64,000 nt of DNA from Eledone cirrhosa. Lineage: Eukaryota. A model generated the notes under the pieces. It did not search any database. It saw nothing but the letters and a program-made list of their open reading frames with translations, and was not told where the DNA came from. The position numbers were made by a program, and so were the translations under genes. Shown piece after piece: positions 6,611-62,410 of this stretch. The stretch spans positions 128,774,001-128,838,000 of the forward strand of contig OZ024745.1 in the NCBI GenBank assembly GCA_964016885.1. The letters run 5' to 3'. How positions within the stretch are numbered: the stretch's first letter is position 1; every line of letters begins with the position of its first letter.

Positions 6611-6897
6611 ATAATAATTGTTTCTACTTTAGGCACAAGGCCAGCAATTTGAAGGGAAGGAGAAAGTCAATCAAACCCAGTGTATTACTGGTACTTTATT
6701 TTATCTCACCATAATAATTGTTTCTACTTTTGGCACAAGGCCAGCAATTACTCCAGTGTATTACTGGTACTTTATTTTATCGACCCTGTAAGGATAAAAG
6801 GCAAAGTGAACCTCGGCGGGATTTGAACTCACACCATAAAGGGGCGTAACTCTGCTGTAAAGCATGGCGTCTGACTCTCTACCGATACTGCCAATCC
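6611..6897 (-). mobile_element. SINE family B (partial plus near-full copy)
   Basis: Same motifs as the copies at 3935-4518. Confidence 0.85.
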
Positions 6898-41871: not shown

Positions 41872-42098
41872 GAAGGTGCATGGCTTAGTGGTGATAGCAT
41901 TGGGCTTGCAATCGAAAGGTTGTGAGTTCAATTCTCAGACCGGGTGATGTGTTGTTTCCTTGAGCAAGACACTTTATTTCACATTGTTCCAGTTTACTCA
42001 GCTGTAGAAATGAGTTGTGGCATCACCTGTGCCAAGCTGTATCGGCCATTGCCTTTCCCTTGGCCATCATCGGTGGCGTGGAGAGGGGAGGCTGGTAC
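41872..42098 (+). mobile_element. CORE-type SINE (family A head, different tail)
   Basis: Head and CORE near-identical to family A; diverges after aaatgag. Confidence 0.82.
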
Positions 42099-46438: not shown

Positions 46439-46496
46439 ATACCTGATGATGTCACCGGATTCATACTGAACCCGGTCATTGAAATGTTCATAGTAT
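46439..46496 (+). ncRNA. Type I hammerhead ribozyme
   Basis: atac-CTGATGA-tg..accgg..ccggt-catt-GAAA-tgttcata^gtat-AATAAA. Confidence 0.72.
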
Positions 46497-46539: not shown

Positions 46540-46616
<77 letters not shown>

Positions 46617-46618
46617 TA

Positions 46619-46754
46619 CAACAGTGACATATAAAGTACTTAAGTTTCGCGGAGTTATCACCCCAAGTCATTCAGCCTGTCATAGATATAACAGACTGAA
46701 TGAGTTGGGGTTAATAACCTAACGAAACTTAAATATCTGTACATATCACTGTTG
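46619..46754. ncRNA. Imperfect palindrome with two divergent variant hammerheads (CUGAAUGA core)
   Basis: Plus strand: acaga-CTGAATGA-gttgggg..cctaac-GAAA-cttaaata^tctgt. Minus strand: acagg-CTGAATGA...GAAA-cttaagta. Confidence 0.62.
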
Positions 46755-46909
46755 ATACTAATTATATATAACACACCCTTTAGGAAGAGTGCTCTAACTA
46801 ACCTTTGGATATTTATACCAACTTGTACTACAGTGTATGTGTGTGTGTGTATATATATATATTTCAATGATATTAATAAATGGAAACTATCTTTATAAAA
46901 CCATATTTA

Positions 46910-47810: not shown

Positions 47811-47998
47811 TATAATTATTTCTACTTTTGGCACAATGCCATCAATTCACCAGTACATTACTGGTACTTTATTTTATCGACCCCGTAAGGATGAAAGGCA
47901 AAGTTAACCTCGGCGGGATTTGAACTCAGATCATAAAGGGCCATAACTCTATGCTGCAAAGCATGGCGTCCGACTCTCTACCGATACTACCAACCCAC
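47811..47998 (-). mobile_element. SINE family B
   Basis: Full reverse copy. Confidence 0.87.
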
Positions 47999-48141
47999 AA
48001 TGACCCGAATAATGTGTAAGAATGTCACCACTCCCACTATATAATAAGCTAAAGATGTTTGAATATTATCGAAATTAAGTCAAGTCCTATCTAAGTGAGA
48101 CACACATGTGGTGGTAATGGTGGTGGGGGTAGTGGTGGTGG

Positions 48142-48288
48142 TGCTTTGCAGCATAGTTACGGCCCTTTATGGTCTGAGTTCAAATCCTGCCGAGGTTAAC
48201 TTTGCCTTTCACCCTTACGGGGTCGGTAAAATAAAGTACCAGTAATGCACTGGGTATTTGCTGGCCTTGTGCCTAACGTAGAAACAAT

Positions 48289-48290
<2 letters not shown>
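48142..48290 (+). mobile_element. SINE family B, 5'-truncated
   Basis: B box, central domain and tail. Confidence 0.82.
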
Positions 48291-48320
<30 letters not shown>

Positions 48321-55465: not shown

Positions 55466-55615
55466 AATAAACAACACAATATAATTATTCCATTACCAAA
55501 GGTTTCAGGAAACTAGACGACCTTAACATCTGATGAGCGTACTGGACGTTTCTGTTAGGATCGTCTAGTTTCCTGAAACCTTTGGTAATGGAATAATTAT
55601 ATTGTGTTGTTTATT
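55466..55615. repeat. Fold-back palindrome (~63 bp arms) containing a hammerhead
   Basis: 55466-55528 versus 55553-55615, near-perfect. Confidence 0.92.
55527..55590 (+). ncRNA. Type I hammerhead-like motif
   Basis: cat-CTGATGA-38 nt-GAAA-cctttggta^atg. Confidence 0.62.

Positions 55616-57914: not shown

Positions 57915-62410
<4,496 letters not shown>

Follow-up and report, generated by a model that had tools for sequence, protein, structure and literature searches.

The locus consists of two decayed 3′ ends of a Hydra-clade Penelope-like element (PLE) in inverted orientation, and the 8-nt hammerhead core carried by both of its arms, CUGAAUGA, is the older state of the element family. This core has one adenine inserted after A6 (A6a). 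Comparison of core sequences among the family's lineages and with related elements indicates that A6a was most likely gained at the family base and lost in the youngest branch. The hammerhead core is commonly treated as nearly fixed; G12-A9 is required for catalysis, and the core numbering used here is likewise standard.

Results

Anatomy of the Locus

Within the window (the whole 64,000-nt stretch analyzed), the locus occupies positions 46545–46833. The 136 nt first singled out are a head-to-head palindrome adjoining a (TA)n tract, and the element extends past their end at 46754, via its tail to about 46833. The (TA)n microsatellite forms the left flank (46545–46611) and is the likely insertion target, in line with the Hydra-clade preference for (TA)n. 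Next to it, on the minus strand, lies an inverted, 5′-truncated copy of the element 3′ end (46614–46680), consisting of a damaged type I hammerhead and a short downstream stretch, without the tail. Its core lies at 46668–46675 and is followed by C in place of G10.1; damage affects both stem II and the 3′ strand of stem I, and the GAA, palindromic stem III block and GUA triplet (46637–46648) are intact. A 10-nt junction (46681–46690) separates the two arms, both truncated just 5′ of stem I.

The plus-strand type I hammerhead (46691–46740) has its core at 46696–46703, a stem I of 5/5 pairs (46691–46695/46736–46740) and a stem II of six pairs, one of them G-U (46704–46709/46718–46723). Its stem III is broken by a G16.2-to-A change, and the predicted cut falls after 46735. 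The downstream stretch and one-sided tail (46741–46833, plus strand) correspond to the start of the 5′ UTR in full-length copies. This map agrees with the original prediction, which had described an 8-nt core instead of CUGANGA in both arms, a perfect stem I and good stem II in the plus arm, and a perfect stem III in the minus arm. Damage is complementary, each arm being broken where the other is good. Mismatches to the family majority number 10/68 positions in the plus arm and 9/68 in the minus arm; both arms are probably dead and are predicted to be inactive copies. By our own arithmetic, the chance of both arms keeping the 8 nt is ~0.09, so their shared core is unremarkable by itself and its real support is family-wide.

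Either strand of the locus folds as a single long hairpin (−55.8 and −79.8 kcal/mol). A short-read contig equals window 46612–46750 with 0 differences, which makes an assembly artefact an unlikely source of the palindrome, although the read run may be that of the source sample. With rows of small share set aside, read runs containing locus DNA belong to one organism only. Rfam, at E up to 10, gave no hammerhead at the locus, and eight loci that include canonical sister ribozymes were likewise without a match; weak microRNA model matches, far under threshold, reflect the palindrome.

Other features of the window are recorded here as separate observations. A decayed hammerhead at 55530–55592 (plus strand) has a canonical core, and its stem III and cut site follow the pattern found in the intact sister families. 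Weaker CUGAUGA look-alikes at 46443 (plus), 46960 (minus) and 47055 (plus), all within 400 nt of the locus, have poor or missing stems and are possibly older PLE ends. An inverted repeat of a different family (47811–48292) encloses 206 nt between 138-nt arms that are 90% complementary; positions 57916–62403 form an array of 4.5 kb, rich in (TA)n and interspersed with G; and a partial tRNA match barely over the Rfam threshold (41881–41938, plus strand) is possibly a SINE head.

The 8-nt Core across the Family

The original prediction had proposed searching the genome with the 8-nt core. Across the 3.0 Gb searched, the core in family flanks returned 507 exact matches (control, 0), compared with nine for the 7-nt form, only one of which belongs to the family, having lost a single base. 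Exact core and exact stem III block occur together in 446 copies, and a DNA search with the locus gave at least 78 matches from the best 40 of 1436 candidates. A core-blind pattern on the stem III side gave 753 genome matches. Ninety of these were examined (5 duplicates; 16 truncated or unalignable), and the 74 alignable matches comprise 37 with exact CUGAAUGA, 12 with CUGAAGAA and a remainder of decayed forms. When 20 loci were chosen by coding sequence alone, the core was visible in 13, with 16/16 arms in the 8-nt register and 12 exact. The family-wide core bears out the proposal that the insertion is older than the duplication at the locus. The duplication itself is no separate, later event: an inverted truncated copy is typical of Penelope-like insertions.

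Lineages were defined on 172 of the 203 arms found, 31 partial arms being excluded. The family-majority hammerhead has a core surrounded by three stems, arranged as in type I: a 5-bp stem I, a 6-bp stem II and a 2-bp stem III with a palindromic loop. GAA and the GUA triplet are present, with A15.1-U16.1 as A-U in 162/172 arms; the C3 U4 G5 A6 N7 G8 A9 series is interrupted by a single inserted A in lineages A to B2. The core reads CUGAAUGA-G in lineages A and B1, and lineage B1g has an additional A-to-G change in loop III. In B2 the core is CUGAAUGA-A, so that G10.1 is lost, yet the lineage spread; in B3 it is CUGAAGA-AA. Measured over the columns that did not serve as search anchors, divergence from the lineage's own majority is 0.119 in A (which pools several lineages), 0.062 in B1, 0.061 in B1g, 0.077 in B2 and 0.049 in B3. 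A midpoint-rooted tree of 23 long-flank arms, with no B2 row, places its single B3 row within B1g and B1g within B1.

Canonical cores elsewhere in the family, which the original prediction had named as counting against its reading, occur in part: the B3 form, in canonical register, has 166 exact genome matches, but this sub-lineage is the youngest and is nested within CUGAAUGA lineages. Outside the family, two intact sister families in the same genome both have canonical cores, and CUGANGA(N) is found in 26/26 Hydra rows in the accessible part of File S2 of PMC8557442. The inserted A is therefore confined to the family side of this comparison, which argues for its gain at the family base. No other A6a family emerged from 77 further matches in the same genome, which are mostly this family or chance and fall under the control count.

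The Host Element

Long copies of the family extend 5′ into a decayed ORF. One ORF fragment has 1249 homologues, many of them ~700 aa long, and some of these have PF00078, PF26215 or PF01541 on record (reverse transcriptase [RT], helix–turn–helix and GIY-YIG). The copies align to intact sister ORFs of the same genome over residues 1–702, at ~35–63% identity per segment. Among 20 loci, motifs were found at the expected place for RW(K/R) in 5, DKT in 6 and CxCX5C in 3, and CxxC is also present. Pfam on the decayed element fragments returned no relevant family, the PDB search no match, and a short C-terminal fragment used as query no homologue. From the motifs and the (TA)n target, the family appears to be a Hydra-clade PLE; a first guess of Neptune or Nematis was dropped in favor of Hydra on the motif definitions and the motifs found.

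As far as the accessible text describes them, Hydra-clade PLEs (Craig et al. 2021, PMC8557442) share with this family a single ORF with a C-terminal endonuclease and RW(K/R), DKT, CxCX5C, CxxC and Cx(H/R) motifs, as well as a (TA)n target, an inverted truncated copy, a one-sided tail and a 3′ hammerhead. The family tail is longer than 30–40 bp, unlike that of the Hydra-clade elements described there. Among 85 distinct arms, the 5′ end lies 0–30 nt 5′ of stem I in 48, inside the ribozyme in 13 and further upstream in 24. An inverted partner accompanies 30/85 arms and is absent in 55/85; in 25/28 inverted pairs, the tail is limited to one arm. Both the inverted truncated copies and the one-sided tail have been described for PLEs (PMC8557442, accessible text). 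At one long locus, L083, ~200 nt separate the ORF from a ribozyme copy upstream of it, and the 5′ UTR starts with the tail sequence.

The strong truncation hot spot just 5′ of stem I coincides with a U-rich tract ending in ACAG, which is splice-acceptor-like and overlaps stem I. Separately, the family 3′ UTR and tail contain several short conserved motifs that are splice-donor-like on the antisense strand (L071, 6330–6340).

Other element classes do not fit. Non-LTR retrozymes are defined, in the accessible part of 10.64898/2026.07.22.740005, as head-to-tail tandem repeats that each contain a hammerhead, whereas here the copies are ends of a coding element, scattered singly or as inverted pairs. 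MITEs are non-coding and have fixed terminal inverted repeats; here the variable 5′ ends enter the ORF and most arms are unpaired. At 14 metagenome loci with related elements, the A6a core was found in none and a canonical core in one, a comparison of little weight because several contigs stop near the ORF end.

Conservation, Covariation and Folding

Comparison of four lineages by their majority rows shows differences at 78/146 columns of the upstream region and at 5/48 of the ribozyme (Fisher P = 7e-8), most arms having been found via patterns within the ribozyme, which biases the set toward conserved arms. Four of the ribozyme changes are in loop II and one in loop III, with 0 in core and stems, and the loop III change preserves dimer pairing as G-U. 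The downstream stretch is likewise conserved (2/13 columns differ), so the constraint on the ribozyme may not be catalytic.

Stem covariation was absent within the family (172 arms): the stems are invariant, not compensated. The plus-arm stem I has an A-U swap, which was rejected as covariation because it occurs in 3/172 arms against ~0.7 expected by our own arithmetic. A pairing of loop II with the 5′ flank, picked out by eye, comprises 4 bp, requires a register shift between lineages and is unsupported. In cofolding, the natural arm L107 adopts a dimeric hammerhead at minimum energy. The hammerhead dimer was obtained for 1/4 correctly registered arms; a fifth arm, L114, is one base out of register.

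Relation to Known Hammerheads

An insertion at A6a was known once before, in a natural hammerhead whose activity was present but low (Perreault et al. 2011, PMC3088659); the expectation expressed there, in the accessible text, is that A6a harms the core. In the text layer of its Fig. S6, an example from a marine metagenome reads as this 8-nt core, and the literal core has 0 matches in the accessible Dataset S1, where gaps may hide some. That example is a rare one of low activity whose stem III is long, whereas in the present family the insertion is fixed in hundreds of copies and stem III is minimal and palindromic. The proposal that CUGAAUGA is a natural core variant therefore stands in its family-wide occurrence, but the variant is not new.

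In other respects the family resembles the minimal PLE hammerheads described in the accessible text of Cervera and de la Pena 2014 (PMC4209133). These are type I, with a 5-bp stem I, a 6-bp stem II with G10.1-C11.1, a short palindromic stem III, a U-rich 5′ flank, opposite-strand pairs and a predicted dimer. The consensus core given there is CUGANGAH, with the extra base between A9 and G10.1; in this family it follows A6, and A9 abuts G10.1.

The original prediction also held that standard descriptors miss the core. Rfam and the CUGANGA pattern do miss it, but the failure is not specific to the insertion, since Rfam also missed the canonical-core sisters L266 and L273.

The A6a Core in Phage and Other Contigs

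Viral contigs were scored for complete type I or III hammerheads, with the same script for every pattern. Among the matches listed, CUGAAUGA lies in a complete type I or III hammerhead in 7/117 distinct matches in phage contigs, on six contigs and with differing stems, compared with 70/130 for the canonical core, 0/100 for a scrambled-core control, 0/115 for C, G or U as the extra base, and 2/117 (1 convincing) for other bases at position 7. Counted per contig among the matches listed, the result is 6 versus 0/215 pooled controls (P = 0.002), and A6a occurs at roughly 1–2 per 100 U7 hammerheads, a rough figure over the matches listed. On one phage contig, an A6a ribozyme lies together with two canonical hammerheads, and the Rfam alignment of the A6a ribozyme has a single inserted A after CUGA; RF00008 gives sub-threshold matches at 2/6 phage A6a loci. 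In prokaryote genomes, the 121 matches include one weak, probably chance case.

As a side observation, two viral contigs, L318 and L734, contain homologous type III hammerheads with A6a in both, U or C at position 7 and a compensated stem I.

Discussion

We consider it reasonably probable that master copies of the family used a dimer-forming type I hammerhead with A6a to cut their own RNA, probably slowly, and that the Hydra-clade 3′ ends seen now are decayed copies. Two same-sense ribozyme copies would pair via the 8-nt palindromic stem III; A6a would bulge out and leave C3-G8 and G12-A9 in normal register; and cleavage after GUA would trim the element RNA. Reverse transcription would often stop just past the ribozyme and add an inverted copy, giving palindromes like the locus. 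Counting for a cleaving ribozyme are the divergence of the upstream region relative to the ribozyme (78/146 versus 5/48 columns), the 446 copies with core and block, the minimum-energy dimer of L107, the low but present activity published for A6a, and the phage A6a hammerheads. Counting against it are the absence of covariation, the B2 loss of G10.1, the B3 core change and the dimer cofold in only 1/4 arms, together with the harm expected in PMC3088659 and the dispensable cleavage of PMC11167929, in whose accessible text hammerhead mutants of another PLE inserted in vitro without loss and no read had its end at the cut site.

Several of these points fit the main rival account, which we hold to be rather unlikely: that A6a crippled the ribozyme, that the family spread without cleavage, that the sequence was kept as a protein-binding, priming or splice signal at the element's end, and that B3 either drifted or came back to a normal core. 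Conservation of the downstream stretch matches that of the ribozyme, B2 spread without a G10.1-C11.1 pair, and the U-rich tract and ACAG before the core are splice-acceptor-like, as in Drosophila Penelope (PMC4209133, accessible text). In the accessible text of the respective papers, A6a activity is low (PMC3088659) and cleavage was dispensable for in vitro insertion of another PLE (PMC11167929). A sequence kept for such reasons sits poorly with lineage changes confined to loops II and III, with the core and all paired bases spared and the loop III change retaining dimer pairing, and with phage hammerheads in which, among the matches listed, the insertion recurs as A only and the stems are intact.

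It is very improbable that the core is to be read in the usual PLE register, as CUGANGA plus an extra base before stem II, with two substitutions (G8U and A9G) and no insertion. The 8-nt spacing equals that of the CUGANGAH consensus (PMC4209133, accessible text), and B3 arrives at this register by a two-base change; but the reading breaks both C3-G8 and G12-A9, which are catalytically required, and the Rfam alignment of the phage examples places one A after CUGA. The requirement for C3/G8 is documented in the accessible text of PMC11167929. To a MITE-like or microRNA-like palindrome that resembles a hammerhead by chance we give the least credence: the fold of the locus as one long hairpin and the weak, far sub-threshold microRNA model matches favor it, but the continuation of long-copy arms 5′ into an RT–endonuclease ORF already refutes it, in addition to the 55/85 arms that stand unpaired and the canonical hammerheads that sister families carry at the corresponding position.

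A wider reading can be put tentatively, and we are inclined to doubt its full form: A6a would be a recurring, fully usable second form of the core, adenine-specific, with separate origins in phages and in an animal retroelement, and missed by CUGANGA descriptors. Within one genome, the family would have passed from CUGAAUGA-G through CUGAAUGA-A to CUGAAGA-AA, the last step restoring register after the loss of G10.1. The retention of A6a through several lineages and the separate phage cases suggest tolerance in the core. They also suggest that census patterns undercount hammerheads, as CUGANGA misses A6a. Some 150,000 PLE hammerhead variants were reportedly collected by Lunse et al. 2017, and these may include the A6a core. 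A6a in a PLE or an animal was not found in the literature consulted, including the accessible parts of PMC6765202, PMC10085705, PMC6962438 and 10.64898/2026.10.21.760802. Nor did this accessible literature contain a retroelement family with the insertion fixed, its adenine-specific recurrence among phage contigs or its later loss. The dated natural core series A, B1, B2 and B3 offers a ready set on whether PLEs need the ribozyme, a point left open in the accessible text of PMC8557442 and PMC11167929.

Other PLEs of the same searches merit brief mention. Just upstream of one family copy, a second PLE has at its end a motif resembling a hammerhead, with U3 and A8 (L073, ~6825–6875; one copy only); a U3 and A8 covariant core is known from Schistosoma PLEs (PMC4209133, accessible text). 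The loci L258–L287 (e.g., L258 and L273) include two young PLE families of Hydra type whose ORFs, of ~714–719 aa, are open; in the L273 family the cut site is G in the 3′ hammerhead and A in the upstream copy.
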